Origin: a virus
IMG/VR virus record: IMGVR_UViG_3300045988_169084
Strand: one strand, 5' to 3'
Length of the DNA: 37,968 nucleotides
Within the stretch, counting starts at the first letter, position 1; each line of letters begins with the position of its first letter. Under the pieces are notes generated by a model that saw nothing but the letters and a program-made list of their open reading frames with translations, searched no databases and was not told the origin of the DNA. The translations under genes and the position numbers were made by a program. Below, one piece after another: positions 13,403-34,388 of this stretch.

Positions 13403-13403
13403 T

Positions 13404-15395: not shown

Positions 15396-15396
15396 A

Positions 15397-16326
15397 TTAA
15401 GAGAACCCTCCGATTGATGAACCTATCTTGGAACCTGCTCGCATTCCTACAGGGCCGCCTACAACGGCTCCTATGGTGCTTCCTATGATAGAACCCCACA
15501 TTGAAGTGCGAGCTTGCTTAGCGGCCTTCCTAGCCTGTCCTGCACGCCATGACATGACGCGCGATCGGTACATGGTATCTTGCCTCCTCTGTTCTGCCTC
15601 TCTTTCGGAGTCTGCGATCTGTTGCTCGAACTTGCTCATCGTGCCACGTTGCACGGCCTCAATGGAACCCGAGGTAGGGGCAAAGCCCGTACGCACTGCC
15701 GCCACGCGCTGTTGCGTTAAATACCTTTCCTGATTGCCACGGAGACGCATCATGTTTGTCCCGGCGATCTTGTAAGCGGACTCCGACCTTTCAGCTAATG
15801 CCTGCGCCTGAATATTGTACCCACGTTCGGCAATTTGATACTGGTGTTCTTTGTTAAGATTATCTAGTACATCTCCAAGAACATTGCTAGCCGCACTCCA
15901 CGTCTGAGAATTATTGCCGAACTCCGGCTGAACTTGGTTGTATGTAAGCGGCTGGTTGCTAATAGGTACCGTGCTTGCAGTAGTATTAATGGACGCCACA
16001 CGAGGTTGCATCTCAACGCCATATGTCGAAGACGTCGGCGCAGGTTGGGGCATCTCCGGGTAACCTAATTCGGGAAGAGGAGCATAAGAAGCGGATACTG
16101 CCGTTTCTCCGCTGTCATAATAACCCGGCAACAATCCATCCCCGTATGTAAGATTCGGCACAACTGAATTTTCAATCCAGCTAGGCCAGCTTATCAAAGA
16201 GTCATCTGCCCACCCAAGGTTATCATACGAGGTTGGAATCATAAATGATATATGCTGATAAGACGTCCGTGTTCTTTGCGTCCGTAAACGCGAAATACAA
16301 TCTGGTATCGGTGGATGAAGGGCCAC
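15397..16326 (-). CDS. internal virion protein (309 aa; gp14-position analogue) with a Gly-rich C-terminal hydrophobic segment
   Basis: C-terminal 'GSIIGSTIGAVVGGPVGMRAGSKIGSSIGG' glycine-zipper-like tail. The annotated start lies 104 bp inside the upstream gene, so the real start is probably an internal Met. Confidence 0.4.
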   Translation of the reverse strand: MALHPPIPDCISRLRTQRTRTSYQHISFMIPTSYDNLGWADDSLISWPSWIENSVVPNLTYGDGLLPGYYDSGETAVSASYAPLPELGYPEMPQPAPTSSTYGVEMQPRVASINTTASTVPISNQPLTYNQVQPEFGNNSQTWSAASNVLGDVLDNLNKEHQYQIAERGYNIQAQALAERSESAYKIAGTNMMRLRGNQERYLTQQRVAAVRTGFAPTSGSIEAVQRGTMSKFEQQIADSEREAEQRRQDTMYRSRVMSWRAGQARKAAKQARTSMWGSIIGSTIGAVVGGPVGMRAGSKIGSSIGGFS

Positions 16327-21850: not shown

Positions 21851-22774
21851 TTACCATTGAACGTGCGTAGACGCAAGCCGATTATATTCCTCCCTCGCAT
21901 CTTTTGGCATCCGGTCCAAACTTCCGTATTTGGAAATCATGTCAATCATGCGTTGCTGGGCACTCGTCCCTGATTGGGACCTCATCACTCCCGGAGTAGG
22001 CATCGTCCCTTCCTGATACCTTGCCGCCTTTTCGTACAAGGCTTCCAAGATATATGGGTTATTGAGGGCCATCGCAAAAGAGCTATCATCAACGTCAATC
22101 CCCGCATCGATCAAGCTCTGCCGAAGGATTGTTGCGTTGCGTTCATACTGCGGCCCCCATTCCTTCCTGAAATGCTCCTGAGCCTGCTTGGAAGCTTCTT
22201 CCACTCTCCTTACAAACTCTTCATTGTTCTTGCGGTAAAGCGTATCTTGATAGCGCAGAAGCTCCTGTGCCGTCTCAGCCGGGATGTTGTGCTTATGGGC
22301 AAACGCCGCAAACTCTTTAAAGCTCGCCTCGTCATAGTCGTCCTTATACTCATCAGGAATCTGGTACCCATCAACATTGTCAGGAACGCCAATGTAGGAG
22401 CGCCATGCTTTAATCTCTTCCTCACTGGCTCCTTCTCCGGGTTTCTTCACGCCGTCAAACTTCTTCCCGATTAACTGGTTGGCATTCACAAAGCCTTTCA
22501 CCAGTTCATCAACATTCTTGTACTTCCCTAGAGAGTCGGCACCTTCAAACTTGGAAGTCCACCCTTCCTTGAAAGAGCCATCCTCGCCGATAATATCAGC
22601 CACCTTAAATGCCTGCTGTTGCGTATCCGTTGGAGCTGGATTTGCATCAAGCTTCATCGTCCCCGGCATCTGCATCTGCTGTGCAGGCTGGGTAGTTTGC
22701 GTGGAGGAGGCGGCGCTCCCTGTCGTGGTGGTAGGGGCCTGACCCCCTGCATTATTTGGATTGCTATCAATCAT
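21851..22774 (-). CDS. scaffolding protein (307 aa)
   Basis: Low-complexity Thr/Gln/Ala-rich N-terminus followed by a charged helical region, sitting between the portal and capsid genes. It is the same length as T7 gp9, which may be coincidental. Confidence 0.45.
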   Translation of the reverse strand: MIDSNPNNAGGQAPTTTTGSAASSTQTTQPAQQMQMPGTMKLDANPAPTDTQQQAFKVADIIGEDGSFKEGWTSKFEGADSLGKYKNVDELVKGFVNANQLIGKKFDGVKKPGEGASEEEIKAWRSYIGVPDNVDGYQIPDEYKDDYDEASFKEFAAFAHKHNIPAETAQELLRYQDTLYRKNNEEFVRRVEEASKQAQEHFRKEWGPQYERNATILRQSLIDAGIDVDDSSFAMALNNPYILEALYEKAARYQEGTMPTPGVMRSQSGTSAQQRMIDMISKYGSLDRMPKDAREEYNRLASTHVQW

Positions 22775-23070
22775 TTTCCTGCTAGGTATTTTATTAATTC
22801 AAGCACTTGGCGCGCTCCTGATATGAACATTGCTCTGTTCGCATCAAAGTCTGCAAGCAAGGGGGCTTCCTTCTTCACATGTTCTTTATCACACAAAGAA
22901 AGGTCAACCATTGTAGTAAGGTAAAAGAGCAAGCGATTGGTTAATTCGGACCCCTTAAATTCTTCCCGGAACCGGATAAAATCTTCCTCCGGCACTTTGC
23001 TTACATTTCCGAAGAAGTCATAAACCTTTAATGCCTTCTTCTTGTTTTTATCATCAGTAGTTATTTCCAT
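22771..23070 (-). CDS. hypothetical protein (99 aa) between portal and scaffold
   Basis: ORF with a 4-bp overlap to the scaffold gene. Confidence 0.45.
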   Translation of the reverse strand: MEITTDDKNKKKALKVYDFFGNVSKVPEEDFIRFREEFKGSELTNRLLFYLTTMVDLSLCDKEHVKKEAPLLADFDANRAMFISGARQVLELIKYLAGK

Positions 23071-23073
23071 AAA

Positions 23074-24693
23074 TCATCGCATGTTCCCTATAGCGCTCCC
23101 AATGTTCTTCTGGATTTCAGAAGCTTCAAGAGCATTAGCCATCTGATTGGCCCCCTGTTGCGCCGCTTCTCTTTCTTTAATAAGACGGTCAACCTTCGCT
23201 TTATCCTTGAGTATCTTGGTCGGCATCCCAATAGATTTAATCCCTGACCTCATGATAAAATCAGTATCAAAGCTAATCATCACATCAGGATCAATCTGAG
23301 CCAAAGGAATCGCAATCGTCTGCATGAACTCGGAGAATAGCGTCGGCTGGTGACGGTCCAAAAGCATTTGGAAAGGAGTCGTAAACTTGATGCTAAAATC
23401 ATCCAGCGCAGGAACAAGCTTCTCATCTCGAAGAAGCTCATAGCAACGCATCACTACAGGCTGTAGGAACTCTTCCGTCAACCTAGTGTAGGCAGGGGAA
23501 GCAATCCTCGCAGAATACGCTTCGATCATCTGCGCCACCGTCGCCTTCATGTATTGAGGGTCTTTGACCTGCAACAACGGCGCAAACAAATCCATGTCGC
23601 ATGTCTTCTGAATGTTGTTCTCAAGCCTCTGCACCTGCCATTGCATCTCATTAGCCTGCATCATGTTCTGGAACAAGGGCGTCGGCTTGGCCTGAACGTT
23701 CATCGGGTTGAAGGTTGTCACCCCGCCAAACCCCCAGTCAATGTTCCCATCAAATCCTTCCGGCACCAGCATCGGCGGGAATATCTTCTGCATGGCCGAT
23801 TCGCTCAACGCCTTAACGGAGTTGGTCAATTCGGTCTGGTCCCCTAATGCCCTCAAACCAGCACCAACTCCATAAGGAGAGTTGGCAATATCAAAATAGT
23901 TTGAGACGCTCACAGGGCTTGTCCAAAAATACTGCGTCGCCAGAACATCTCCTGACTGGTCAAACACGCTACGCATCACCCACGGCCTGCCATTAGCCTC
24001 TTTAATCAGCTTCTCGTCTCCCGTCCTCTCCACCTTCTCCAGCAAATGGAACACAAGATAGTTGTCAGGATTTACACTGCTCGCCTGATATTTCTCCTTC
24101 ACCATGTCAGGCAGTACATTCTCCGGGAACGTCGCGACAATGTCCTGTATCCTCAACCACTCATCCCAGCAAAACGTATGGACATTCCCAAACTTGTCCC
24201 TGTCCACCATGAAATCCCCTACAGGAATATGCGCAAATTTCAGCATCCCTCGCACCTTGTCCCATTCGGACCAGAAGGCCGCCTGACCGTAAGCCGCACG
24301 ATCAAAGTAAAAAAGCTCGGAAGCCGTGTGGAAGTTGCTGTTGCGCATAAACCACGCAACCTGCCTCCCTGTCTCATAATAAATGTTCTCAATCGTGCTA
24401 TCAATCTGGCTCTGATCGTCGATCTTGGCCAATGGCTCAAAGCTAAACCATCCCTGACTCTTGGGCGTTATAAGCTCATGCTGGCCAGCCGCATTTACCC
24501 TCAAAGCCCTTTCAAGCGTCTGGTCCAAATAGCCAAGGTCCGTCCCAGTAGATTGATAAACCGCACCGTTAATGTTGAACTTCTTCTCAGGATCAACGTA
24601 TTGCGCGATCCTCTGCCAGTTGCTCACGTACCGCTGGCGGAAAGCATACAAATCCGCATGCTTCTGCTTGGCATCTTGTTTGTTGGTAACCAT
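23074..24693 (-). CDS. portal protein (539 aa)
   Basis: Size and position (terminase, then portal, then scaffold, then capsid). Confidence 0.55.
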   Translation of the reverse strand: MVTNKQDAKQKHADLYAFRQRYVSNWQRIAQYVDPEKKFNINGAVYQSTGTDLGYLDQTLERALRVNAAGQHELITPKSQGWFSFEPLAKIDDQSQIDSTIENIYYETGRQVAWFMRNSNFHTASELFYFDRAAYGQAAFWSEWDKVRGMLKFAHIPVGDFMVDRDKFGNVHTFCWDEWLRIQDIVATFPENVLPDMVKEKYQASSVNPDNYLVFHLLEKVERTGDEKLIKEANGRPWVMRSVFDQSGDVLATQYFWTSPVSVSNYFDIANSPYGVGAGLRALGDQTELTNSVKALSESAMQKIFPPMLVPEGFDGNIDWGFGGVTTFNPMNVQAKPTPLFQNMMQANEMQWQVQRLENNIQKTCDMDLFAPLLQVKDPQYMKATVAQMIEAYSARIASPAYTRLTEEFLQPVVMRCYELLRDEKLVPALDDFSIKFTTPFQMLLDRHQPTLFSEFMQTIAIPLAQIDPDVMISFDTDFIMRSGIKSIGMPTKILKDKAKVDRLIKEREAAQQGANQMANALEASEIQKNIGSAIGNMR

Positions 24694-24694
24694 C

Positions 24695-24979
24695 TTATTG
24701 ACCTAATGCGCTTTTGCCACTTACCCCGCTACCTGCCCCCAAGGCGTTCTTGCTCGCAACAAAGGTTCCTCCAAAGGAACTACGGCGCCTGTTCTCACGT
24801 ATCTTGTTCTCCGTGCCAGACGTATCGACTGTTACCTCATTCACTGGCTTCTCAGGAGCAGGAGCATCCATCCCCTCCTTGTTCTGCTTCAAGCCTAATA
24901 CGCCTCCAACGATATTAGTAACACCTTTGAACACGCCGCTAATAGCGTTGCCTATCTCTTTAAACGGATTGCCGCCCAT
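24695..24979 (-). CDS. hypothetical Gly-rich small protein (94 aa)
   Basis: ORF between the terminase and portal genes. Contains 'GNAISGVFKGVTNIVGGVLGL'. Confidence 0.4.
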   Translation of the reverse strand: MGGNPFKEIGNAISGVFKGVTNIVGGVLGLKQNKEGMDAPAPEKPVNEVTVDTSGTENKIRENRRRSSFGGTFVASKNALGAGSGVSGKSALGQ

Positions 24980-25394
24980 GATTTTTTCCCTTTCCTAATA
25001 ATTTAATTAGCAATTCAACTTCTTTTCTCCCGTACAGATACACATTCCCCGCACGAAAGCCAATAAAATATTTCATCCTCTCCTCTTTTATCATCCATCT
25101 TAACAACACTCTAAAATCTCCAACCCCTAAATAAAAGAAGAACCCATTCGCATCATGACGGCTACATGATAACGAAGGAACGCACGCCTGCTTCACCCTA
25201 GACCAGCATTCCTCCACATCAGCCCACCCCTCTTCCATCCGAAAGAAATGCCCCATCACAAGGCATCTATCATCCCATCGCCGATATAAATAACGATGCT
25301 CCTCCCAAGACGCATCAAAATCCGCGCCTAAAGCTTTCAGGACCGCGCGCCCCTCCTCTCCTAGACATGATGCCTTCATAGTTGTTCCTATCAA
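24960..25394 (-). CDS. hypothetical Trp/Arg/Gly-rich protein (144 aa), encoded by a C-depleted sense strand
   Basis: The annotated start overlaps the terminase 3' end by 80 bp, so the true start is probably an internal Met. Composition is biased. Confidence 0.35.
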   Translation of the reverse strand: MIGTTMKASCLGEEGRAVLKALGADFDASWEEHRYLYRRWDDRCLVMGHFFRMEEGWADVEECWSRVKQACVPSLSCSRHDANGFFFYLGVGDFRVLLRWMIKEERMKYFIGFRAGNVYLYGRKEVELLIKLLGKGKNHGRQSV

Positions 25395-26934
25395 TATTTA
25401 AATTGCTAAAGTTCCGGCCAAAGCTCTTCTTTACATGCGTCTCTCCTCCTCCACTTACGTTCCCAAGCAAACCAGCCATCCGAGCCTCAGCTATGTATCT
25501 CAACGAATCACTCCAATGCGACGAACTATCATGCACGATCTCGTTCTTATAGGCCCCATTCTCTCCAAGCGCGGGCTTCATCCTGTAGCTTAACCAGTAC
25601 GGATAAGCCTTCTCCGTCCCACCTATATCAAATCTCAATAAAGGGAACATCCCTAGCAAGTAATTGATACTTATCCATTTATCTCTTATTCTAGGCAAGC
25701 ATACTATCCCCGGCAACCCAGCCTGTTGCCACATGTACGCCTGACTTAAACCCGTGTCTGTCGTGTACCCAGCATCATGCGGAAATATATTCCTCATCAA
25801 GGTGGGAAATCTACTCAACAACCGAGCCGTCCTCTGCGCCGGACCCTCACTGCTATATTGGCCGCAATCACTATCTACTATCCAGATCAACCCCTCCTTC
25901 AACTGGAACACCGTCGAAACCGTATTCAACGGATTCCCCAAATCCCACGTCGCATAACACGGCAATGTCGGATCATATGGCGCATGCAAAAAATGACCAT
26001 CCCTCATCGATGCCTCAAGCACCTCCTCCAATATCGCACCCTCCATCGGCACCTCAAACGCCTCATCCAGCGTCGAAGGGTATTCCTCGTTCATCGATAA
26101 GCCATGTTGCCTCTTCGCCTTCTGCCACCAAACCTTCTGCCTGTCTTCCAAGTCGATCCCATATTTCGCCTTCAACGTCGTAAAGTAACTCTTCGTACTC
26201 TCCGTCAACGGCTCATCATCATCACTAACATTGCTCTCATCTTCCCACCACGGCAAAAATACAACGTTAAAGTCCTTCTCCCCCCTATGCCCCTCTTCTA
26301 TCGATAACGCATTCATCACGTTCTCATAGAATATCCCCTTCTTCCCCCCTCTTACTGTCGTCTCAACAAAAATAAATCCATCCTTCGCCGCAGGAAACGT
26401 CGCATTCACTATCTCCGCCGCCCTCTTCGGCTCCGTCGCACTTATCGTTCCCAACTCCGATATGTGCGCAAACCCCAAACCACTGCCCCTAAAGTATTTA
26501 CCACCAACTATACGGCTCGACTTCCTACCAACCATCTCCACCGTAATCATCTTGTTGTTAAATTCCATCTTAAACAACCAAGGCAATTTCCTCCTCAAAC
26601 TCTCCAACGCAACCCTCACTATCTCCCTCAACTTCTCCTCAGCATCAGGTTGCGTCCTGTCAACCAACGCCAATAACCACCCCTCATTAAACGCCGCCAT
26701 GTCCGCCATCATCACACCAATGCACGTACTGCACCCCTGACGACGCGACTTCGGCACCAAAAATCTCTTCTTCCCCCTCAAATAACACTCCTCATGCAAC
26801 CTACGCTGGAATTCCCTAGGCTCATATCTAATCACTCGACCATCCGTCAACTTGATCTCATACAAGTTGCTCAGCCTCCACATAGGGTCTTTCAACCTCT
26901 CCAATAACAATCTCTTCTCTTCCGAACTTAACAT
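25315..26934 (-). CDS. terL: terminase large subunit (539 aa)
   Basis: N-terminal P-loop-like 'LVPKSRRQGCST', acidic nuclease-domain motifs, and position directly upstream of the portal gene. Confidence 0.7.
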   Translation of the reverse strand: MLSSEEKRLLLERLKDPMWRLSNLYEIKLTDGRVIRYEPREFQRRLHEECYLRGKKRFLVPKSRRQGCSTCIGVMMADMAAFNEGWLLALVDRTQPDAEEKLREIVRVALESLRRKLPWLFKMEFNNKMITVEMVGRKSSRIVGGKYFRGSGLGFAHISELGTISATEPKRAAEIVNATFPAAKDGFIFVETTVRGGKKGIFYENVMNALSIEEGHRGEKDFNVVFLPWWEDESNVSDDDEPLTESTKSYFTTLKAKYGIDLEDRQKVWWQKAKRQHGLSMNEEYPSTLDEAFEVPMEGAILEEVLEASMRDGHFLHAPYDPTLPCYATWDLGNPLNTVSTVFQLKEGLIWIVDSDCGQYSSEGPAQRTARLLSRFPTLMRNIFPHDAGYTTDTGLSQAYMWQQAGLPGIVCLPRIRDKWISINYLLGMFPLLRFDIGGTEKAYPYWLSYRMKPALGENGAYKNEIVHDSSSHWSDSLRYIAEARMAGLLGNVSGGGETHVKKSFGRNFSNLNIDRNNYEGIMSRRGGARGPESFRRGF

Positions 26935-26953
26935 CTCAACCCCTAATCCTTTA

Positions 26954-27451
26954 CTATCTAACTATCTCTCTCATCTCAAACTCAACCGCCTGCCAGTCAA
27001 CATTAACGTGCGGACCAATCGCCTCTTTGCTCATAAATTTCCACGCAAACAACACCAAATCTGTACTATCCCTACCTCCATACTTCTTATACAACCACCT
27101 AGCCTTCCCCTTAATCCGGTACTTCGTCCTGCTCCGCAATACATAAAACTTACACGTCTCCACTCCATCAACCACATCATCCCCAGCAGAAACCCCAGCA
27201 GGCCTAATCCCATTCAGGTTCTCAACTCCCCTCAGCTTAGAACCCTCATAAACCAATTTATATTTCTTACTCAAATACCTCTTCTTCTCTTCCAATTTCC
27301 CGTCCCTCTCGTATATGTCATACGCCCTCCTAACATTCAAACTACATCTCCCGTACTTCTTCCACCCCATCAGCAAGTAATACAACTCCTGCTCAAATTT
27401 CCTAACTCCCTTCCCCTCTACCTCCAACCGCGCCTCATTACTTATCCCCAT
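26954..27451 (-). CDS. hypothetical Lys/Gly-rich protein (165 aa); terminase small subunit candidate by position only
   Basis: A stop-free 165-codon frame in a cytosine-depleted (A/G/T-rich) strand, where stops should be frequent. Confidence 0.4.
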   Translation of the reverse strand: MGISNEARLEVEGKGVRKFEQELYYLLMGWKKYGRCSLNVRRAYDIYERDGKLEEKKRYLSKKYKLVYEGSKLRGVENLNGIRPAGVSAGDDVVDGVETCKFYVLRSRTKYRIKGKARWLYKKYGGRDSTDLVLFAWKFMSKEAIGPHVNVDWQAVEFEMREIVR

Positions 27452-27950
27452 AATTCCCCCCTTTCAACAATTCACTAAGCTCACTCCCCATCTCCTCTTC
27501 ACTACCCCCTCCATTCCCAAGCCACCCCTTCATCCTTATAAACATGCTCAACGCCTGCAACTGGTCCTTACCACTCACTCCTTCCCCCCTTCCCATCTTA
27601 CTCAACAACCGCTCCACCTCTCCCCTACTCAACACCCCAACTTCTCCATCATCCCCTAAATCCATATTCAGCCCATCCTTCAACTCCCTCTTCAACATCT
27701 CTAACAACTTCTCCTCATTCCTCCTCATTTCATCCTCAAAATATTCATCCCTCTCCCCTAACAAATCACGACTAATCTCTCCATAGCTCTTCCTTCCCAA
27801 CAACACCAACAACATCCCTCTCAACTCCACCATCCCTACCTTCAACCCATAACCAAGCCTCTCTAACTCCTTCTCCCTCTCTTCACTCTCTTCACTCTCC
27901 AACAACCAGACAATATGCCTCTCAAGCTCTTCCGATAATTCTTCTCTCAT
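27438..27950 (-). CDS. hypothetical highly acidic protein (170 aa) encoded by an essentially cytosine-free sense strand
   Basis: 170 stop-free codons where chance predicts about 9% stops per codon. The protein has 0 Pro, 0 Thr, 1 Ala, 1 His and 2 Gln. First gene of the leftward operon. Confidence 0.4.
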   Translation of the reverse strand: MREELSEELERHIVWLLESEESEEREKELERLGYGLKVGMVELRGMLLVLLGRKSYGEISRDLLGERDEYFEDEMRRNEEKLLEMLKRELKDGLNMDLGDDGEVGVLSRGEVERLLSKMGRGEGVSGKDQLQALSMFIRMKGWLGNGGGSEEEMGSELSELLKGGNYGDK

Positions 27951-28086
27951 CTCAAAAACATATATAAATCATCCTCTCATCATTGTCTATGCTTTTTTCC
28001 CATAAAGCCCCAACACAACAAAACTACAAATCCTCTCATATTCTCTACATATACTATACTCCTTCTCTTTTCTCAGATTTTTCTTA

Positions 28087-28428
28087 CTCGAGGGACCCTT
28101 CTTCGTGCGCTTGACGCCGCCGCCGCTTTTCTCCCGCCGGCCCCCTCGAGACCCCCTCCAGTGGTCCCCCTAGGGGTGGGGTTATCGTCTCGGCTACGCT
28201 AAGAGGGGTGAGCTGGAGAGGTCGAGCGTCAGGCGTTGCGGTGCGTGGTGCGTGGTGTTGCGTGGTCTATCATGTTGTTGGCGTCACCAAGATGATGATG
28301 ATGATTTGAAAAAAATGTGACGAGTTGACAAAAAAAGCTTGCAATGGTGAGAGAAAATTGACACAAAGAGTGCATCAAGTGAGGGGCACGACGCCTCGAA
28401 CGACGACAACCGACAACCAAAAACAAAC
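28087..28428. promoter_or_regulatory. GC-rich divergent control region (candidate early/late promoters, origin and/or pac site)
   Basis: Lies between the first leftward gene and the first rightward gene. Contains an inverted repeat with ctcgag ends (28087-28092 / 28145-28150), the perfect palindrome cccctagggg (28167-28176), a GGTGCGT tandem (28242-28257), (GAT)5 (28293-28307), and two TTGACA hexamers (28327-28332 and 28360-28365). Confidence 0.5.
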
Positions 28429-28755
28429 ATGAAAGTGACCATTAACAAACTAGCATCAAAGCGCCTCTTAGAGGCATTTGCCAAAGTCGGAGCTTGCAGG
28501 ACCGAGGAGCAAGCCGAGGCTCGCATGTCAAAGCTCTTAGGCGTGCCAGTGCATGTGATCTACTACCGCTCGGAAGAGATCACGGAGATAGACATGAGGG
28601 CGGCGACTGGAGAAGGGAGCCTGTTCCCGGCTCGCGTGAGCGTCGAGGGAAGCGTGCCGTTGTACAAACTGGCGGCGCTTGTGAAGGATGCCTTGCCTAC
28701 CTTAGCCGTTGGAGTGGTGACCTACAACAACCACATGCAACCCTCTATCAACTAA
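28429..28755 (+). CDS. hypothetical early protein (108 aa)
   Basis: First ORF of the rightward arm, with a CA-rich leader. Confidence 0.5.
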   Translation: MKVTINKLASKRLLEAFAKVGACRTEEQAEARMSKLLGVPVHVIYYRSEEITEIDMRAATGEGSLFPARVSVEGSVPLYKLAALVKDALPTLAVGVVTYNNHMQPSIN

Positions 28756-28791
28756 TTATTAACAATCAACGAAACAAGGAGAAAAACGAAA

Positions 28792-29058
28792 ATGAACAAG
28801 AAATATATCTATCGCTGGACGGCCAAAGCGGCCGACTGGTCAACGTACAAAATGTGCTACGAACTGGCAAAGACGGAACGAGGCGCTTTGGTTGCGGCTC
28901 ATCGTTGGTGCGACGACAACCTGTTGCACGGCATGGGAGCGGATCACATTGCTATAGTTGAGTGCAAGATTGACGACGGCGACATATCTGGTCCGTGGCA
29001 AGAGGTGAGGGCGCAAAGGCGTCGTCCTTACGGTGGACGGTGGATTGAAATCCTCTAA
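28792..29058 (+). CDS. hypothetical early protein (88 aa)
   Basis: AGGAG SD. ORF with normal composition. Confidence 0.5.
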   Translation: MNKKYIYRWTAKAADWSTYKMCYELAKTERGALVAAHRWCDDNLLHGMGADHIAIVECKIDDGDISGPWQEVRAQRRRPYGGRWIEIL

Positions 29059-29072
29059 CTTACGAAGGAGCT

Positions 29073-29264
29073 ATGAAAACCGCCGCTATCATCGCGCTTG
29101 GAGTTGTAAGCCTAGTAGGCTTTGCCGCTATCATCCGTAGCGTGTGGCTAGACTACACGTACAGACACGCACCGCTGGGCAGTGTGATAGTCATTGCCGT
29201 GTCATTGACAGTCATGATCTGCATCACGCTGATGACACTAATCACGCTGGTTATCAACAATTAA
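29073..29264 (+). CDS. small two-TM membrane protein (63 aa)
   Basis: Two hydrophobic helices. The stop codon lies inside the TTAACAATCA motif. Confidence 0.5.
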   Translation: MKTAAIIALGVVSLVGFAAIIRSVWLDYTYRHAPLGSVIVIAVSLTVMICITLMTLITLVINN

Positions 29265-29302
29265 CAATCAAAAACATTAAACATTTAAAGGAGAAAAGAG
29301 AA

Positions 29303-29644
29303 ATGATGATAAAACTCGTTAACCCCGATTGCGATGCCGCGACGACATGCGGCATCTATGAGTTGCAAGACGGGGAAATAATATTGTACATTGAGTATGA
29401 GACAATTTATAGTATCTCGTTTGTAGGCCTATCTGAGCCTATGAGCGTTGAGGCCGCCATAACCGCGATTAAAAACAACGCACTTGCCGAAATAAAAACA
29501 AGCGGAGAAGAGGGCGAAATCCACAACCTCCCGATGAAACGCTCTTGTGGGGCGCACCGAAATCGAAGAAGACGGCCTGCAAATCTGCTTGTATTTTCCG
29601 AATATGAGCGAGAAGACCCGCGAGAAGTTCGTGGAAGCATTTAA
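29303..29644 (+). CDS. hypothetical early protein (113 aa; start at 29303 MMIKLVNPD..., preceded by AAGGAG)
   Basis: The ORF track lists 29144..29644, but that start overlaps the upstream membrane gene. The SD-associated ATG is at 29303. Confidence 0.45.
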   Translation: MMIKLVNPDCDAATTCGIYELQDGEIILYIEYETIYSISFVGLSEPMSVEAAITAIKNNALAEIKTSGEEGEIHNLPMKRSCGAHRNRRRRPANLLVFSEYEREDPREVRGSI

Positions 29645-29663
29645 CGATTAACAATATACGTAG

Positions 29664-30044
29664 ATGAATTTGGAAATAGATAGATGCGACTTTGAGCGAA
29701 TCGTCAACGCCTTTCACTTGATAGACGCCAAAATCAGTGACCGTGAATTCGTCCTAGACACGATATGGAGCATGGTCGAAGGTTCAGACCTAACATTTAA
29801 CAATTTGGAAGCATGTGTCACCTTGTTAGACGTTTACGATGACGTAGAGGAGTTTGCCTATGACAGACTAAGCGACGAAGAAACTAACGAATTGTTAGAA
29901 GACGTCGGGTCTAATACGCTCCTTAAGATAGCACTGGATAGACTCGTCGATAGGGGAACTATCATGTCTTACAATCTACGAAACGGTGACGCAACTATTA
30001 TATGTGACCTAAACGGTGACGCAACTATTATATGTGACCTCTAA
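29664..30044 (+). CDS. hypothetical acidic protein (126 aa) ending in a duplicated decapeptide NGDATIICDL
   Basis: ORF. The 3' end carries a perfect 30-bp tandem duplication. Confidence 0.5.
   Translation: MNLEIDRCDFERIVNAFHLIDAKISDREFVLDTIWSMVEGSDLTFNNLEACVTLLDVYDDVEEFAYDRLSDEETNELLEDVGSNTLLKIALDRLVDRGTIMSYNLRNGDATIICDLNGDATIICDL
29981..30040 (+). repeat. perfect 2 x 30-bp in-frame tandem duplication (aaacggtgacgcaactattatatgtgacct)
   Basis: Read directly; both copies are identical. Confidence 0.9.
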
Positions 30045-30083
30045 CCTCTAACAATCAACAACAAACAACTATAACAAAACGTT

Positions 30084-30728
30084 ATGAATCAATCAACCAA
30101 ATCAAAAGGAGAAAAAACCTACGACTACAAGGCAGTCATCATCAGGTCATACAACCCACTACAAACCGAAATCATCGAAGGAGAATCGAAGTCAAAAAAC
30201 ATTAAGTGGGCCGCAATCGTCGCCGCTAGAGCAATCGCCACGCATAACGACGTGGACGCCTTAATCCTCCTCTACGACGCGAAAACCGGAAAGCACGTAC
30301 ACTCATCACGCCTCAGAAAGGCATCATGCGCCTCATATCGTGAGCGGATCACTAACCAAGCAAAGTATGCCCGCAAATCGAGAACGCGCGAAATAGAGCG
30401 GCTTTATTGCTATCTCCCTCGCCCCAAAATCATCACCAAAGCAAGCGGCCACAGAAGGCAAACATACTACAAGATTATCATCAGAGAAATCTACATTGCC
30501 AAGTCCGGGAGACTGGCAACTAGGAGTATCCCACGCGAGAACCTACCGGAAGCACTAAGAACCGAAGGCAGGCTCGTCCGAGAATCAAATCTCCAGTCAG
30601 AACTCGACAGGATCATGGCAAACCTCTATTCCCGTAGCTCACTGCCTGACCTCGAACAAGCACAAAAGATTGCAAGCGAATGGCCAAATTTTGAACATAT
30701 CATCAACTTCATCAAAAGATACTGTTAG
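30084..30728 (+). CDS. hypothetical basic protein (214 aa), possibly nucleic-acid binding
   Basis: Arg/Lys-rich ORF. No specific motif recognised. Confidence 0.5.
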   Translation: MNQSTKSKGEKTYDYKAVIIRSYNPLQTEIIEGESKSKNIKWAAIVAARAIATHNDVDALILLYDAKTGKHVHSSRLRKASCASYRERITNQAKYARKSRTREIERLYCYLPRPKIITKASGHRRQTYYKIIIREIYIAKSGRLATRSIPRENLPEALRTEGRLVRESNLQSELDRIMANLYSRSSLPDLEQAQKIASEWPNFEHIINFIKRYC

Positions 30729-30767
30729 AACAAAATCGTAACTACCTAACAACAAGCATAATACGAA

Positions 30768-30810
30768 AGAGGGCCGCCCGTTCATAACTGGTGGCCCTCT
30801 CCTCTTTTCC
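30768..30810 (+). terminator. rho-independent terminator candidate (stem agagggcc/ggccctct, T-rich tail)
   Basis: Hairpin 30768-30800 followed by cctcttttcc, immediately downstream of the 214-aa gene. Confidence 0.45.
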
Positions 30811-31457
30811 ACGTCATAATAAATTTTCTGCTTGCAATGCCACCGATTTTGCTTGACACTGATTGGCGTTCGGATGAACACGCAGTCTTACTTGAGGTGG
30901 GAGGGGTCTGGAGTCCCCCGAACTGGTTCCGGTCGAGGCTTGAGAGCTAATGAGAGGCAGTCTAGGGGAAATGAGAAGAAGAGTAAAGAAGAAAAAAAAT
31001 CAGTATTATCTTTCCGGAGTTTGGATTTGCTAGAAGAGGTTGGCGAAATTAAATGGGAATAGGGAATAGCGAGAGGAATTAGGAATAATACCGATTTTTG
31101 GTGGAGGGTGTAGAGAGTAAGAGAGGCGTGGAAGTAGAGGAGAGGGAGAGGACGAAGAATTGGAGGAGAGTAGTGGTAAGAGAGGTTGTGAGAGGGCAGA
31201 AAAGGGAGGAGTATGGTTTGGAGAGGAATCTTGGGAATGACCTGCATGCCAGTAGGTTATTTTGGGATTTTGGAGTGTGAAAGATGAGGGCTGTTGATTG
31301 GATTTGATGAATTGTTAGTTGGCTTGGAGGAGTTGAGGCGGCGCCCTTAGTTAAGGGTTTGATAAATGGGATGTTTGGTTGGTTTGATGAGGGGAAATTG
31401 GATGAAACGGCGCCATGTTTGATTTTGGAGTTGACGGCTTAGGGAAAAACGTTATAG
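30811..31457 (+). other. ~650-bp non-coding, cytosine-depleted, purine-rich block with short repeats (GGAATA x3; GTTTGAT x4-5; GA-rich tract 31090-31240)
   Basis: No ORF above 76 codons on the plus strand despite the position between plus-strand genes. Composition is near C-free, and repeats are visible by eye. Confidence 0.5.
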
Positions 31458-31949
31458 TTGAAAGAAAACAAAGGAGAACTAGAAATGAAGAAATATGAAC
31501 TGAGCGCATTTGTAAACTTTGATAACTGTTTTGAATCCCAATTCCCGGTTGGGGGGGAAGTTGGGGCGTTAAATAGGGTTTATGGTCATTTAAAGGGGAT
31601 GTGCGCTAGTGGGGATGATGTTCTTTTGGGTGTTAGCTTGGTTGAGGGAGGGCATAGGAGGAGTATGGGTGCGATATGTTTCAAATGGGGGTGTGGGGAT
31701 TGTTTTGATTTGTCGAGGGGTATTAGTCGGTGTGGTGTTTTGGTGGAAGATATGAGCTACTGCTTTTTAACGTATGTTGCTAATGGGACTAACCCGTTGA
31801 TTTATGGGATGCAGTATGTATGGGTTTTTTATAGTGACCGGATTGAGAAGGTGAATAGGATTGTAGCGGATTATTCATTTTCTGATTACCGCTTGCAAGG
31901 CTTATGGTTTTTTGATGAAGAGCATTGTTTTAAAGATGCTTGTAATTAG
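31458..31949 (+). CDS. hypothetical Cys/Gly-rich protein (163 aa) encoded by a C-depleted sense strand
   Basis: AAGGAG SD. The ORF is stop-free in an A/G/T-rich context. Confidence 0.45.
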   Translation: MKENKGELEMKKYELSAFVNFDNCFESQFPVGGEVGALNRVYGHLKGMCASGDDVLLGVSLVEGGHRRSMGAICFKWGCGDCFDLSRGISRCGVLVEDMSYCFLTYVANGTNPLIYGMQYVWVFYSDRIEKVNRIVADYSFSDYRLQGLWFFDEEHCFKDACN

Positions 31950-31981
31950 AAAAAAGAAAAGAAAGAAAGGAAACAATAACA

Positions 31982-32944
31982 ATGGATAAAAAAAGAACGA
32001 TGCAAAGAAGAAATAATAATAATAAAGTAACTTATAGGGTTTTTGTCCTTATAAAATATGAAGATAAGTTGGAAGACTTTTATAAAGAAGAGGCGCTTGC
32101 TAGTTATCCTGATGTTCGTGCATTAGAGGATATGATTAACCGGGTAAAAGAACATGCTATCGATGCTAAGAAAAGAGGTCTTGGCCTAGAGTTCCACATT
32201 AGCGAGGAATATGGTCAGGCGTTTAGAGATATTAAGTTTTCTAAGAACTATTCTGCTGATGAATTGTCGTTGTTGGACCTTGAAAAAGAGTTTGATATTG
32301 ATTCGTATGTTTTTATGCATGATATTATTCAAGCTAGTGGCCGGAGTCGTGGGATTTTTTATCCTGCATATTCAGATTCGCTTAAGGCCGCTGAGGAATA
32401 TATTGAGACATCAGGAATGGACAGCAAGCTTTTCATCACCATATCCTATAATTGCGACGCCCTAAAAAGAATGGAGTTTATCGTTGGTTCTTTTAAATAC
32501 ACTTTCAAAGATAGTAATGTAGTTGATTTGAGCAAGTCCGAAGAAAGCCGTGAGAAGGCTCCAGAAGGCCCTAGCGACGCTTTGGAGGACTTTGGTACCA
32601 AGGAAGACTTGGAAACGCTTCTGGAGGTGATGAGAGGCCTTCGAGACGATGTTAACGGAGAGCTGAATGATTCTTGCGTAGCTGGGGTCCGTTTGGTGAG
32701 TGTGAGAGCAGTGGATGCTCCGGGAGCGGCCAACTATTTTCGGCGGGCTAGGAAGGACATTGATGAGAGGACAGGATTGGTGAGATTGTCGGAGATAGAG
32801 ACTAATGAGCTTTTCGATAAGGAAATAGGAGTTGTTGTTCCCTATCTGTCTTTGAGGGCTTATCTAAAGACCGGAGAAAAGGGGCTGTTCGCGCGTCAAA
32901 TGGAAAAGGCCCAGCGCGAAGTGATGAAGGACTTCGAGAAATAA
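31982..32944 (+). CDS. hypothetical protein (320 aa); replication-associated by position only
   Basis: Large ORF upstream of the recombinase, within the replication-like module. Confidence 0.45.
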   Translation: MDKKRTMQRRNNNNKVTYRVFVLIKYEDKLEDFYKEEALASYPDVRALEDMINRVKEHAIDAKKRGLGLEFHISEEYGQAFRDIKFSKNYSADELSLLDLEKEFDIDSYVFMHDIIQASGRSRGIFYPAYSDSLKAAEEYIETSGMDSKLFITISYNCDALKRMEFIVGSFKYTFKDSNVVDLSKSEESREKAPEGPSDALEDFGTKEDLETLLEVMRGLRDDVNGELNDSCVAGVRLVSVRAVDAPGAANYFRRARKDIDERTGLVRLSEIETNELFDKEIGVVVPYLSLRAYLKTGEKGLFARQMEKAQREVMKDFEK

Positions 32945-33089: not shown

Positions 33090-33707
33090 ATGATTTACGG
33101 GTACATTAGGGTAAGTAGTGACAAGCAAACAGTGGAGAACCAACGCTTTGAAATAAATAATTTCTGCGAGCGAGAGAAAATTAAAATTGATGGTTGGATT
33201 GAGGAAACCATCAGTGGTACTAAGGCATACAATAAACGCCAGTTGGGAAAACTGCTCAGACAAGTACAGAAAGATGACCTTATCATTTGTGCCGAGCTTT
33301 CACGTCTTGGGCGAAATCTCTTTATGATTATGGAGATACTGAATATATGCATGACCAGAGAGTGCCGTGTGTGGACAATCAAAGATAATTATCGTCTTGG
33401 TGATGATATTCAAAGCAAAGTGTTGGCTTTTGCCTTTGGCCTATCTGCGGAGATAGAACGCAATCTTATTAGCCAGCGAACTAAAGAAGCCTTGGCAAGA
33501 AAGAAAGCCGAGGGTGTTGTTCTTGGCCGACCGAAAGGGAAAAAGAATGCTCCTAATAAATATAAGCTTTCTGGCAAAGAAACACTAATAAAGGAGTTGA
33601 TAGCAATTGGTGTATCAAAGCGCAAAATTGCGAAAACATGTAAGGTCGACCGCAATACGCTTGCACGCTTTATCAAAGAAAATTTGGAGCGCTTAATTAC
33701 CGCATAA
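33090..33707 (+). CDS. small serine recombinase (resolvase/invertase family, 205 aa)
   Basis: N-terminal 'MIYGYIRVSSDKQ' with the catalytic Ser in the canonical context, 'LSRLGR', and a C-terminal HTH-like region. Too short for a large serine integrase. Confidence 0.8.
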   Translation: MIYGYIRVSSDKQTVENQRFEINNFCEREKIKIDGWIEETISGTKAYNKRQLGKLLRQVQKDDLIICAELSRLGRNLFMIMEILNICMTRECRVWTIKDNYRLGDDIQSKVLAFAFGLSAEIERNLISQRTKEALARKKAEGVVLGRPKGKKNAPNKYKLSGKETLIKELIAIGVSKRKIAKTCKVDRNTLARFIKENLERLITA

Positions 33708-33770
33708 TAAATCCCCCCCGGCAGTTTGTGGTTTTTCTGCCGGGGGGATTTATTATGCGGTAATTAAGCG
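33690..33770. terminator. bidirectional terminator: ~34-bp near-perfect inverted repeat around a 13-nt loop (inner GC stem ccccccggcag/ctgccgggggg), shared by two convergent genes
   Basis: Read directly. The arms extend into both coding regions, so both proteins end in ...RLITA. Confidence 0.6.
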
Positions 33771-34388
33771 GTCCATTGATTCTGCAATGGATTTTATTAG
33801 GAGTGATGTTTCGGGGAATGTGGTTGAAATTGCTATGGTTCTTTGCCCGTTGTCATTTCTTTCTGATAATAGATGTGAAAGATTTGAAATGTTGATATCG
33901 TGCAAATTAACGTTTTGTAGGTTATCAATTACAAGGGCTTTTGCTTTGAATGCTCTTCTCAGAATTGGTGATTTATTCCGGCTGTGAAAGTCAGTTGCTT
34001 CTTTCAACAGGTCAAAGGCTTTAATATAGAAAATGGAATCCCCTTTCTTGTATCTTTGTGCAAGCCATGCGCATGCTGATAGAGTCTTGGGCTTGTTAGG
34101 CCCGCAAATGAGAATGGACTCTTCTTTCATCTCTTTCCTAATGCGTGAATAGAGATCGGGCATGGTTTTGACGGTCATTTCTTTGAGCAGGTTAAAATGC
34201 TTGAGAGGAATCTTGGCAAGCTGGAGATCAGCTAAAAAGATTTCTCGTTCCTTCTCCTGCTGGAATTTCCTTTCTTGCTCGATGTATTCCGGGCTAAGGT
34301 GATCTACAACGGGAATTCCTAGGGGTATGTTATTAAAATCAAACCCTAGTTCTTCGAGGATGTCGGAAGCTTTCTTTGGTTCGGACAT
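33753..34388 (-). CDS. DnaC/IstB-like AAA+ helicase-loader homologue with a degenerate Walker A (GPNKPKT)
   Basis: 'ILICGPNKPKTLSACAWLAQ' (P-loop position), 'ALVIDNL' (Walker B-like), 'IAISTTF' (sensor-like), and C-terminal 'DRLI' as in DnaC 'DRLxH'. Confidence 0.45.
   Translation of the reverse strand: MSEPKKASDILEELGFDFNNIPLGIPVVDHLSPEYIEQERKFQQEKEREIFLADLQLAKIPLKHFNLLKEMTVKTMPDLYSRIRKEMKEESILICGPNKPKTLSACAWLAQRYKKGDSIFYIKAFDLLKEATDFHSRNKSPILRRAFKAKALVIDNLQNVNLHDINISNLSHLLSERNDNGQRTIAISTTFPETSLLIKSIAESMDRLITA

Follow-up and report, generated by a model that had tools for sequence, protein, structure and literature searches.

The bacterial leading strand carries more G than C, and in vertebrate mitochondrial DNA the strand asymmetry forms a gradient that follows the time spent single-stranded. 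AID-driven somatic hypermutation at immunoglobulin promoters is also strand-related and decays roughly exponentially over 1-2 kb. The purine loading of mRNA-synonymous strands, known as Szybalski's transcription direction rule, amounts to a few percent and is uniform along genes. R-loops are known to prime replication in ColE1, at T4 oriF/oriG and at the mitochondrial CSB, and to act in regulation at GC-skewed CpG-island promoters.

In eukaryotic CpG-island promoters and immunoglobulin switch regions, which are mostly non-coding and rich in G clusters, the non-template strand is GC-skewed from the start site downstream, and this skew predisposes to R-loops (Ginno et al. 2013, PMC3787257). The rut-site model of Rho-dependent termination (Alifano; Nadiras et al. 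2018, PMC6144790) is concerned with the same two bases. The loading of Rho needs a C>G "bubble", an unstructured stretch of ~80 nt with much C and little G, and regions free of bubbles are without Rho-dependent signals in vitro. YC dimers and lack of structure also set the loading, and the most relevant sequence descriptors of the model include %G and G-rich motifs (PMC6144790).

In the current analysis we have identified a zone of graded strand asymmetry (22500..28088, minus strand) in a DNA of 37,968 nucleotides from an uncultivated phage lineage (IMG/VR record IMGVR_UViG_3300045988_169084), referred to here as the window. The sense (minus) strand of the zone is G-rich and C-poor, with a skew of about 0.9 at 28088 that reaches the baseline by ~22.5 kb. 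The plus strand between 24700 and 28080 has 876 A, 1237 C, 360 G and 908 T (skew -0.55). An earlier note on this DNA had described a strand-specific bias with its maximum at the 28.1-kb end and a leftward decay, with few G on the plus strand at 27.44-28.08 kb, and base counts and windowed skew agree on both points: 27440-28080 has 20 G and 265 C (skew -0.86, binomial P = 4.5e-56), and the lowest 200-nt window, 27601-27800, has 4 G and 88 C. The extremes in 500-nt windows are -0.89 at 27401 and +0.68 at 31001, against a background outside 21.5-33.5 kb of -0.004 +/- 0.118 (range -0.21 to +0.37). The profile is graded and not uniform, uniformity being the outcome that the note had named as counting against it; an exponential fit of the leftward decay gives s0 = 0.96, lambda = 2830 nt and a baseline of -0.02. 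The note had called the bias a depletion of cytosine from the sense strand, which is correct as far as it goes and incomplete as a description, as the enrichment of G is equally large and GC content is unchanged (0.445-0.474 in the zone, 0.451 in the genome), with an AT skew of about 0.

The C-poor zone has a sharp end at 28088, where a presumed untranslated leader of the late operon begins (27951..28088, minus strand; 138 nt, of which 6 are C) at a weak -10-like hexamer, AGTAAG (28088-28083). The counterpart of this start in the related locus L008 lies 4 nt past the promoter-like TGGACA-17-CATAAT, and the C-poor zone begins at most ~10 nt from this site in L008 and from TGGACA-17-TGTAAT in clade 2; these calls are sigma-70-like consensus matches in two clades of relatives, the -10 match of the window itself being weak. 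Most clade-2 genomes have leaders of ~200-250 nt of nearly pure purines, which are shorter in L016 and L019. Untranslated leaders are the most extreme parts of the skew (138 nt in the main zone, ~540 nt in the mirror unit described below), so the skew is not driven by codons. Directly upstream is a conserved element (28089..28200, minus strand), CCCCTAGGGGG ... GGGAGAAAAGCGG ... GAAGAAGGG, which ends at the start of the C-poor zone and holds the promoter-like hexamers of the relatives. Its core is kept in every clade, L020 and L023 among them, and no consensus RNA structure was found for this core across the clades. The fixed start point of the zone would be where transcription of the late (terS-terL-portal-...) operon begins; the element could also be a binding site of terminase or a regulator, and it could be a pac or cos site instead of a promoter.

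The cumulative G-C has its maximum at 3435 and its minimum at 28170, within the conserved element and ~30 nt to the left of a divergent intergenic region (28201..28428) with C-rich repeats (CACCACGCA three times, CATCAT) and T-runs in the sense orientation. The expected coincidence of the skew extreme with the divergent region at 28.1-28.4 kb is seen. To the right lies a module of small genes (28429..30728, plus strand) with a net skew of 0.01, the last genes of which are C-rich on the sense strand. The module is present in L002 and L006; clade 2 has no match to it and a spacer of ~1 kb in its place. A terminator-like hairpin read from the sequence (30769..30810, plus strand), with a 10-bp stem of GAGGGCCGCC and GGTGGCCCTC followed by a T-rich tail, closes the module; the terminator scan did not call it because its loop exceeds 8 nt.

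A mirror-image block, also described earlier for 30.83-31.95 kb, is confirmed by a skew of +0.56 over 30830-31950. It starts after the hairpin, with an onset near 30950, is non-coding in its first part and is weaker than the main zone. Its leader (30945..31485, plus strand) is non-coding, G-rich and C-poor (skew +0.69, also over 30945-31457), its small ORFs are frameshifted in L002 and L006, and it has no Rfam match. The first gene of the unit (31486..31949, plus strand) encodes 154 aa, has AAGGAG 8 nt before its ATG and carries 42% G and 6% C at four-fold sites. An ORF of 320 aa (31982..32944, plus strand) lies in the decaying tail. In clade 2, four-fold sites show the mirror block weakly or not at all.

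The first late gene of the main zone (27438..27950, minus strand) encodes a TerS-like protein of 170 aa. Its C-terminal motif LSKMGRGEGVSGKDQLQALSMFIRMKGW is common to the window, L005, L008, L011, L020 and L023. The protein contains 0 Pro, 0 Thr, 1 Ala, 1 His and 2 Gln, as previously claimed, and the five residues together make up 2.4% of it, compared with 20-22% in the homologues of L020 and L023; the bias here reaches nonsynonymous sites. An open frame of 170 codons has P ~7e-7 at the composition of the zone, and with the conserved motif this upholds the view that the ORFs are real genes. A conserved protein of 165 aa directly upstream of terL (26954..27451, minus strand) has 35% identity to an ORF of L005 (E = 1e-21), and no Pfam or PHROG family was matched to it. 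The large terminase subunit, TerL (25315..26934, minus strand), has been assigned by PHROG 2 and by tblastn to annotated phage TerL genes. The skew forms a gradient within this gene, mainly at synonymous sites as the note had it, the P+T+A+H+Q content of 19.3% being near the 20-23% of relatives. The tail of the gradient takes in the gene of a portal protein, a T7-type head-tail connector (23074..24693, minus strand; PF12236, E = 2.5e-57), with 41% G and 15% C at four-fold sites. The phage also encodes a PD-(D/E)XK exonuclease and a RuvC-like resolvase.

The profile of the main zone recurs in 19 related loci, and the gradient is common to all relatives with TerL at least 65% identical when distances are counted from a conserved landmark upstream of terS. 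An exponential profile with s0 ~0.9 and lambda of 2.2-3.3 kb fits six genomes drawn from three clades with differing genes upstream of terL, and the gradient tracks the distance from the landmark whether TerL lies 1.15 kb or 2.5 kb from it. As the gradient is counted from the landmark and not from gene borders, it is an in-situ, position-dependent feature, and this part of the earlier interpretation stands. In more distant loci, L020 and L023 (TerL identity 50-52%), the sense strand is skewed evenly, at 0.45-0.55, for more than 12 kb, with both G and T abundant. A segment acquired from a wholly G-skewed relative of this kind and now decaying, the mosaic alternative of the note, is extremely unlikely. 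Such relatives do exist, and polymorphisms in the zone comprise 46 losses of G and 22 gains (p = 0.005), as a decaying segment would have it. The gradient is however smooth through genes and follows position rather than gene identity, also in clades with terL at differing distances; its peak of 0.9 tops the level of the putative donors, and the suppressed gain of C described below indicates active maintenance.

The composition of four-fold sites bears on the origin of the gradient. Toward the operon start the share of G goes up from 22% to 57% and that of T drops from 35% to 21-26%. The ratios G/(A+G) and T/(T+C) climb from 0.52 to 0.84 and from 0.61 to 0.81, respectively, and purines from 42% to 68%. 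Polymorphisms at third positions were polarised by majority rule and pooled over clades. C>T changes per C site are flat along the operon (0.120 in the first 2 kb; 0.123, 0.124 and 0.155 further out; odds ratio of the first 2 kb against the rest 0.87, p = 0.87). T>C changes fall to 0.018 in the first 2 kb, compared with 0.09-0.16 further out (odds ratio 0.13, p = 1.9e-7, on small counts of 4 seen and ~27 expected). Close to the start, all changes to sense-strand C taken together are suppressed about 10-fold (odds ratio 0.095, p = 2e-16); the suppression extends to each of T>C, A>C and G>C. These three are chemically unrelated and have only the product base in common, which points to selection. 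Arithmetic on the polymorphism counts puts the lowest third-position diversity inside the zone, and this and the excess of G losses over gains (46 to 22) also speak for selection rather than mutation. What maintains the gradient on the mRNA-sense strand seems to be natural selection acting on the transcript, not deamination damage to the DNA.

The note had attributed the pattern to C-to-T deamination of the lagging-strand template or the non-template strand. Mutation pressure on an exposed sense strand, by C-to-T deamination with or without A-to-G, radiating from an origin or promoter at 28.1-30.8 kb, appears very unlikely to us. The geometry fits it, with the sign switch at 28170, the mirror blocks and the decay with distance, features shared with replication-associated asymmetry. 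The rises of G/(A+G) and T/(T+C) are in the directions expected from deamination of A and C, TC dinucleotides are depleted, and the sense strands of L020 and L023 are high in G and T alike. Exposure as single-stranded DNA can yield skews this large in vertebrate mitochondrial DNA, whose four-fold sites are comparable in magnitude. Replication asymmetry is however driven by mutation (C>T, A>G) and enriches T, whereas here T drops in absolute terms at constant GC content, C>T shows no acceleration, three routes to a gain of C are suppressed and diversity is reduced rather than raised. AID hypermutation likewise brings an excess of C>T; the window has none, and no deaminase domain was found among the 30 ORFs scanned, which did not include the large distal virion genes. 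The skew also follows transcription units: the 28429-30728 module beside the presumed origin is unskewed, and in L020 and L023 the skew is off in the spacer from a terminator-like hairpin (read by eye) to the next G-rich stretch, so that a pure replication-origin reading fits poorly. The spectrum of polymorphisms largely refutes the deamination model. The earlier interpretation is thus retained for the pattern, the in-situ origin and the reality of the genes, and not for the mechanism.

Selection on the transcript may be related to Rho. We consider it possible, at somewhat less than an even chance, that the zone is a composition-encoded, Rho-blind and weakly structured 5' part of long transcripts. 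The selected property would belong to the nascent RNA. From the fixed point on, the sense strand excludes C and prefers G in the leader, at synonymous sites and, in the first gene, where constraint is least, also in the amino acids, under a pressure that decays roughly exponentially over ~5 kb; the second divergent unit at ~30950 behaves alike on the opposite strand. The sense strand of the window has no 78-nt C>G window before +3730; the first occurs at +1883 to +3137 in the relatives, and L020 and L023 have almost none across 12 kb. The antisense strand has 100% C>G windows over the first 3 kb. UC dinucleotides are at ~0.5 of expectation, and in the first kb sense RNA folds at -12 kcal per 100 nt, compared with about -25 elsewhere and -2.6 for the antisense. 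An RNA nearly devoid of C, with its many G scattered, offers neither Rho-loading stretches nor G-C hairpins, so that a long operon would be shielded from early Rho-dependent termination as long as ribosomes cover the polymerase poorly; any antisense RNA, C-rich, G-free and unstructured, would be an ideal substrate of Rho.

The rut-site model shares with this locus its variable, C minus G in ~78-nt non-template windows, of which the sense strand is the exact opposite extreme and the antisense strand the matching one. Its known cases are local terminators of ~100 nt, whereas the zone here extends over several kb. We know of no report of a multi-kb graded bubble-free zone that is anchored at a promoter and reaches amino-acid composition. 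The simple Rho argument predicts protection of the whole 25-kb operon and not a lambda of ~3 kb, and the shape of the gradient is therefore explained only with an added assumption; speculatively, the decay would mirror how the probability of an uncoupled or unprotected polymerase declines with distance. Against a function related to Rho, distal late genes have an ordinary C>G bubble density of 0.32 and yet must be transcribed, and the enrichment of G over A and T at four-fold sites exceeds what avoidance of C alone would need.

Selection on the RNA could also act without Rho, in that a three-base, purine-rich RNA would stay unstructured for ribosome loading in the cistrons nearest the promoter, escape a C- or pyrimidine-dependent ribonuclease or toxin, or save CTP. 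This is unlikely in our view, although the signs of transcription-anchored selection on the sense strand count for it as well, and folding energy in the first kb is half of what is usual. Purines make up 67-74% of the sense strand of the zone across clades, as in Szybalski's purine loading, which however has no gradient to near-exclusion of one base. The major capsid gene, presumably the most translated, is unbiased (28% C and 27% G at four-fold sites), avoidance or enrichment beyond composition was seen for no specific motif, and the shape of the gradient is as unpredicted as under the Rho model.

R-loops, with G-rich RNA from two divergent promoters priming or opening a bidirectional origin or with hybrids regulating transcription, are an unlikely explanation. 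Both divergent units have a G-rich non-template strand from the putative start onward, as in CpG-island promoters and switch regions, and the RNA:DNA hybrid is thermodynamically favoured in each system; in the first kb it is 0.15 kcal/mol per step stabler than the duplex, decaying with distance, by approximate nearest-neighbour estimates. The minimum of cumulative skew is located here, and there are conserved G5 clusters a short way upstream of the boundary; against R-loops, this places them upstream of the predicted start site. The window differs from the eukaryotic regions in its far stronger skew of 0.9, in its essential bacterial-virus genes, in an A-rich start with few G clusters and in the depletion of G runs (65 of G3+ against 84 +/- 6, and 18-19 of G4+ against ~40, in composition-matched shuffles); G-quadruplex motifs are not enriched in the zone. 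A 5-kb gradient through essential genes far exceeds the need of a primer, and the weakness or absence of the clade-2 mirror block at four-fold sites also speaks against R-loops.

Selection may lastly act on DNA near packaging ends, the conserved element being pac or cos, with downstream ends decaying in a headful series and strands exposed by exonuclease resection. A strand free of C would be unable to self-pair, as would its G-free complement, and the two would anneal quickly for circularisation or recombination-dependent replication; in a variant, C would be purged from the sense strand through a host factor that targets the cytosines of exposed single strands. The sharp one-sided boundary beside terS, a decay on the scale that would be expected of headful ends, the near structure-free G-free strand (predicted -2.6 kcal per 100 nt), the avoidance of G runs, the exonuclease and resolvase of the phage and the contig breaks noted below are in accord with it, as is the constant GC content, which keeps interstrand stability. 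It is nevertheless improbable, leaving unexplained the mirror block, the coincidence with promoter-like hexamers in two clades and the unskewed spacers of L020 and L023. Several related contigs break at the boundary of the zone, and a strain-variable duplication of ~60 nt at the same place is enough to explain these breaks.

Along the plus strand the GC skew, taken as (G-C)/(G+C), is about -0.1 at 22 kb and declines progressively to -0.91 at 27601-27800 (88 C against 4 G), and past 28088 it is abruptly back at ordinary values. The strand bias that the earlier note had described for 24700-28080 is borne out by a plus-strand skew of -0.55 over that stretch. At 27440-28080 the plus strand has 265 C against 20 G (P = 4.5e-56), and the rest of the genome, in 500-nt windows, has a skew of -0.004 +/- 0.118. 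A mirror block of opposite sign, which begins at about 30950, peaks at +0.68-0.74 at about 31.0-31.4 kb and decays rightward. The GC content within the blocks, 0.44-0.47, equals the genome mean (0.445-0.474 vs 0.451 genome-wide) and the AT skew is near zero, so that the sense strand, with 41% G and 5% C, goes beyond mere poverty in C. A sequencing or assembly artefact is ruled out by the recurrence of the pattern in independent contigs from several samples, with conserved ORFs intact. The two blocks are also not arms of one repeat, as a search for inverted repeats between them gave composition-driven matches only.

The window is a circular assembly with a GC content of 45%. Its first and last 119 nt (1-119 and 37850-37968) are identical and represent the overlap of the circular assembly, and the genome is therefore of 37,849 bp; it is either circularly permuted or has terminal repeats. 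The late operon runs on the minus strand as one long unit from 28088 down to about 3.4 kb and encodes a TerS-like protein, a 165-aa conserved protein, TerL (PHROG 2), a T7-type portal (PF12236), the capsid protein (PF19821) and large virion proteins, one of them of 2029 aa. A divergent intergenic region (28089-28428) is followed by a rightward module of small genes (28429-30728, plus strand), which ends at a hairpin (30769-30810) followed by T-rich sequence; the mirror block, on the plus strand, comes next. Other genes of the window encode a Dam-type methyltransferase, a PD-(D/E)XK exonuclease, a RuvC-like resolvase, a DnaC/IstB-like ATPase and a serine recombinase. A nucleotide search of the region against deposited phages and an Rfam scan of 27300-32100 at E <= 1 gave no match.

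Related loci, 19 in number, have been identified in IMG/VR. Those of the window's own clade are 1-3% divergent, and TerL identity to the window is 85% in the locus L005 and 64-66% in the loci L007-L019, which form two sub-clades. All 19 have the same skew profile once aligned on the sharp boundary at 28088, and exponential fits to the skew profiles of six genomes gave s0 = 0.88-0.96, lambda = 2.2-3.3 kb and a baseline of about 0. The distance from the boundary to terL is 1.15 kb in the window and 2.5 kb in clade 2, owing to extra genes, including an amidase-like gene, between the two. The skew of terL runs from 0.55 to 0.37 at the former distance vs 0.38 to 0.19 at the latter, and the bias depends on position and not on the identity of the gene, being smooth within genes. 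Mosaic acquisition from a donor with such bias, the alternative raised in the earlier note, would be expected to leave step-like edges at recombination points and a composition tied to the gene. The profile is smooth within genes and the skew of terL varies with distance from the boundary. As the bias follows position and runs smoothly through genes, a mosaic block is excluded and acquisition from a skewed donor is unlikely; the behaviour of the relatives is, by the criterion that the earlier note had set, that of a signature formed in situ. The amidase-like gene of the clade-2 phages (L008, 6211-6777; L011, 9017-9577) is situated between terS and terL, within the skewed zone, and is absent from the window; judged by sequence, its product looks like an N-acetylmuramoyl-L-alanine amidase.

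More distant relatives were sought by protein search. Two of them, L020 and L023, have a TerL identity of 50-52% and genes that are all co-oriented, and their sense strand has a uniform skew of 0.45-0.55 across >12-19 kb. One of these loci (L020/L024; CAYVAI010000001.1, 111.7-133.2 kb; TerL identity 50%) lies in a 244-kb contig of a MAG of "uncultured Akkermansia sp." and is probably a prophage; its sense strand has a uniform skew of about 0.5, with T exceeding A, and this contig is the sole clue to the host of the lineage. Relatives with TerL identity of 30% or less, including the cultured Ralstonia phage Cimandef, have no skew, and the trait is therefore one of a single uncultivated lineage. 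It occurs there in two forms, over the whole genome and over the first 5 kb, and relatives of the L020/L023 type provide a natural comparison of the two solutions. IMG/VR scans for further relatives with genome-wide skew and genes on the opposite strand, in which effects of transcription and replication could be told apart, gave the known clades only.

The bias reaches the protein encoded by the first late gene, a 170-aa ORF with 0 Pro, 0 Thr, 1 Ala, 1 His and 2 Gln. The earlier note had given these counts, and its arguments that an open frame of 170 codons is non-random at this composition (P about 7e-7) and represents a real gene hold; a C-terminal motif of the protein is common to the first late gene of every relative. 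This motif resembles the C-termini of small terminases. Amino acids whose codons need C make up 2.4-5.6% of the first late protein in phages of the gradient type vs 20-22% in the L020 and L023 homologues. In TerL the bias is mainly synonymous, as had been noted, such amino acids contributing 19.3% vs 20-23% in relatives. The small protein encoded directly upstream of terL (26954-27451) has no match among Pfam or PHROG families. Its homology is detected by BLASTP within the pairs window-L005, L008-L011 and L020-L023, and the three pairs are linked only by motifs recognised by eye, W/YV.RS..K/Y towards the middle of the protein and W..V.V..E at its C-terminus.

C-to-T deamination radiating from an origin or promoter at about 28.1-30.8 kb had been proposed as the source of the pattern. 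Such a process should raise T and lower GC. At four-fold sites of the sense strand the composition is about A20 C22 G22 T35 in distal late genes, A11 C6 G57 T26 in TerL and A19 C2 G57 T21 in the first gene; T thus declines (35% to 21-26%) as G (22% to 57%) and purines overall (42% to 68%) increase, and the GC content is unchanged. No deaminase domain is found by Pfam and PHROG scans of 30 ORFs of the window, all outside the large distal virion genes at 3387-7255 and 7313-19264. The observed/expected ratio of TC in the zone is 0.48-0.62 in the window and clade 2 and 0.90 in L005, and plain avoidance of C would give the same, through replacement of TCN serine codons and at NNT-C junctions.

Polymorphism was analysed in alignments of the two clades that have close relatives, with the majority base taken as ancestral, changes read in sense orientation and sites grouped into bins of distance from the boundary; the counts are modest, the two clades are pooled and recombination is ignored. 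For the bins 0-2, 2-4, 4-7 and 7-12.5 kb, third-position C>T changes per C site are 0.120, 0.123, 0.124 and 0.155, and are therefore not accelerated in the zone (odds ratio 0.87, p = 0.87). The T>C changes per T site, which are always synonymous, are 0.018, 0.089, 0.102 and 0.160, with 4 seen near the start where about 27 are expected (odds ratio 0.13, p = 1.9e-7). In the same bins A>C changes per A site are 0.010, 0.038, 0.043 and 0.052, and G>C changes per G site are 0.000, 0.008, 0.012 and 0.035; for all changes to C pooled the odds ratio is 0.095 (p = 2e-16). Since three chemically unrelated changes to C are suppressed and the loss of C is not accelerated, selection against sense-strand C is indicated and not a mutational process; it would equally be selection against template-strand G. 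The chief error of polarisation runs against this result, because parallel C>T changes would inflate T>C. In the first 2 kb, G gains number 22 vs 46 G-loss variants (p = 0.005), an excess of losses as would be expected of young variants under a weak preference for G. Third-position diversity, from the same counts, is lowest in the zone (0.089 vs 0.13-0.20), the opposite of what is expected of a hypermutation zone. Deamination in situ is accordingly unlikely. Selection on codons or tRNA supply is rejected as well, the non-coding leaders being the most extreme and the capsid gene unbiased, with no tRNA genes found in the window.

Among the properties tested, the determinant of Rho loading is the best match to known biology. 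Rho is known to load on about 80 nt of unstructured RNA in which C exceeds G, with spaced YC dimers, and templates without such C>G bubbles have no Rho-dependent signals, %G and G-rich motifs being among the most relevant descriptors of the published model (PMC6144790). With bubbles scored as 78-nt windows with C>G on the non-template strand (PMC6144790), the first sense-strand bubble is found at +3730 from the boundary in the window and, among the relatives, at +1883 to +3137; L020 and L023 are nearly free of bubbles across 12 kb. On the antisense strand, bubbles make up 100% of the first 3 kb. UC dinucleotides are at about half of expectation, and the predicted folding energy of the sense RNA in the first kb is half that found elsewhere (-12 vs about -25 kcal per 100 nt), that of the antisense being close to zero at -2.6. 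We propose that the zone would thereby render the 5' part of the long late transcript invisible to Rho, the mirror unit with its long leader would be so likewise, and inward antisense transcription would be maximally terminable. The exponential shape does not follow directly from Rho avoidance; the decay with distance may track the falling chance that polymerase is uncoupled from ribosomes or from other protection. It is a tentative and rather doubtful suggestion that the lineage encodes antitermination and insulation by base composition alone, the opening kilobases of the long transcripts being an effectively three-base RNA closed to Rho and their antisense a maximal Rho substrate, so as to form a directional insulator about the control region, and that selection for this would suffice to reshape the small-terminase protein. 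Other benefits at the RNA level, such as access for translation, escape from nucleases or economy of CTP, are kept open.

The formation of R-loops, or priming from them, is likewise kept open. The non-template strand is G-rich downstream of the putative start, with skew up to 0.9, the zone lies at the minimum of cumulative skew, and by a nearest-neighbour estimate the RNA:DNA hybrid is more stable than the duplex by 0.15 kcal/mol per step in the first kb. Against this, G clusters are depleted, the transcripts begin A-rich and the zone is very long. Selection for G-quadruplexes or G clusters as such is rejected, since runs of G3+ and G4+ are below the block-shuffle expectation and quadruplex motifs in the zone number 0-1 vs 0.4-2.7 expected. 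A DNA-level explanation that is also retained is that of self-avoiding strands, linked to packaging ends and exonuclease resection. It would account for the sharpness and one-sidedness of the boundary, the exponential scale of the decay and the unchanged GC content, but leaves unexplained the mirror block and the coincidence with a promoter. Oriented words of the Chi or KOPS type are not supported, no k-mer exceeding the dinucleotide expectation in all clades, and by our reasoning a sense-strand Chi rich in G would have the wrong orientation for protecting an end at 28088.

The non-coding element with the highest conservation in the family, CCCCTAGG ... GGGGAAAAA(G)NCGC ... GAAGAAGGTATCAC, adjoins the boundary on its upstream side. 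A consensus RNA structure computed for this element from 10 genomes has no pairs, and an antiterminator RNA of the put type is thus unsupported. In the sub-clade of L008 a promoter scan calls TGGACA-17-CATAAT, which ends 4 nt before the C-poor start, and clade 2 has TGGACA-17-TGTAAT at the same position; these sigma-70-like hexamers, identified as consensus matches, end 4-10 nt ahead of the C-poor start. From their positions, no more than about 10 nt separates the predicted start site from the beginning of the C-poor stretch in L008 and clade 2. The corresponding hexamers are weak or degenerate in the window (AGTAAG) and in L005 (AGTAAA), possibly as in late promoters that depend on an activator. 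The presumed untranslated C-poor leader of the window is 138 nt long and contains 6 C; that of most clade-2 genomes is of about 200-250 nt and almost pure purine. The mirror block has a leader of about 540 nt, the small ORFs of which are frameshifted in the related loci L002 and L006 and are therefore not genes.

Skew of the origin type should change sign at an extreme of the cumulative skew, and cumulative G-C does have its minimum at 28170 and its maximum at 3435, both of which are also switches of gene orientation. It should, however, be roughly constant along a replication arm and blind to transcription units. The decay is exponential, and the module at 28089-30750, which adjoins the switch point and separates the two blocks, has a skew of 0.01. 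In L020 and L023 the skew is off for 160-450 nt between a terminator-like hairpin after dnaB, read by eye, and the next G-rich stretch. Since the hexamers, the untranslated leaders, the unskewed module and these spacers all point the same way when taken together, an anchor at the start of the transcription unit seems more likely than one at a replication arm or a DNA end.

Strand skew in bacteria and phages is usually taken for a passive trace left behind by replication or deamination, and origins are called from it. A skew of 0.9 that is held by selection, tied to the starts of transcription units and conserved across phages with 65%-identical terminases appears to be present here, and a supposed mutational scar becomes a probable functional signal. 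Literature searches brought up general studies of strand asymmetry, Rho and R-loops only, and none that reports a graded skew anchored at a promoter in phages. Among known phenomena the nearest are Rho C>G bubbles, GC-skewed R-loop promoters, gradients of the mtDNA type and purine loading; the phage zone departs from each of them in its scale, its shape or its maintenance by selection. If Rho avoidance is the driver, base composition can serve for antitermination, protein composition can give way to selection at the nucleic-acid level, and calling origins from skew can be misleading in phage genomes; the idea is readily and directly testable. Antitermination encoded by composition would, if true, be a new class of cis-acting transcription control that involves no protein factor or structured RNA.

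Strain-level variation occurs exactly at the boundary. At the position of window 28088, the close relatives L001, L003, L004 and L006 have about 60 nt of the boundary element duplicated (GGGTCCTTCCTGTAAGAAATAATGAG...GTCCCTCGAGAGAGAAAAATCTGAG), and the duplication is where three of the contigs break off; such breaks have been set aside as evidence of physical termini, as they coincide with this variable duplication. Read on the minus strand, 28201-28300 has a patch of C-rich repeats (CACCACGCAACACCACGCACCACGCACC), a run of CATCATCATCAT and T-runs just upstream of the conserved G-cluster element, and this stretch could be a regulatory or origin-like region.

The serine recombinase gene (33090-33707; resolvase/invertase, PF00239) is without a match in L002 and L006, which are otherwise 95-99% identical, and at four-fold sites its skew has the opposite sign to that of the adjacent genes; the mirror unit seems to have gained it by recent insertion. 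Three genes, at 29664-30728 on the plus strand and 33753-34388 on the minus strand, form a class with codons ending in A or C (four-fold A 34-39%, C 30-39%, G 9-13%), in which the sense strand is C-rich and G-poor, the reverse of the start of the late operon. The minus-strand member encodes the DnaC/IstB-like ATPase, and its homologue in L011 is balanced. Considered as a means of telling transcription from replication, this gene could be read either way, since its C-rich sense strand matches the class of the plus-strand genes at 29.6-30.7 kb. The ORF at 29664-30044 has a perfect tandem duplication of 30 nt at its 3' end (29981-30040), and the C-terminus of its protein reads ...NGDATIICDLNGDATIICDL. 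An ORF of 144 aa with a TTG start (24960-25394, minus strand), for which no family was matched, has 80 nt in common with the 3' end of terL, and its actual start codon probably lies downstream of the listed one.
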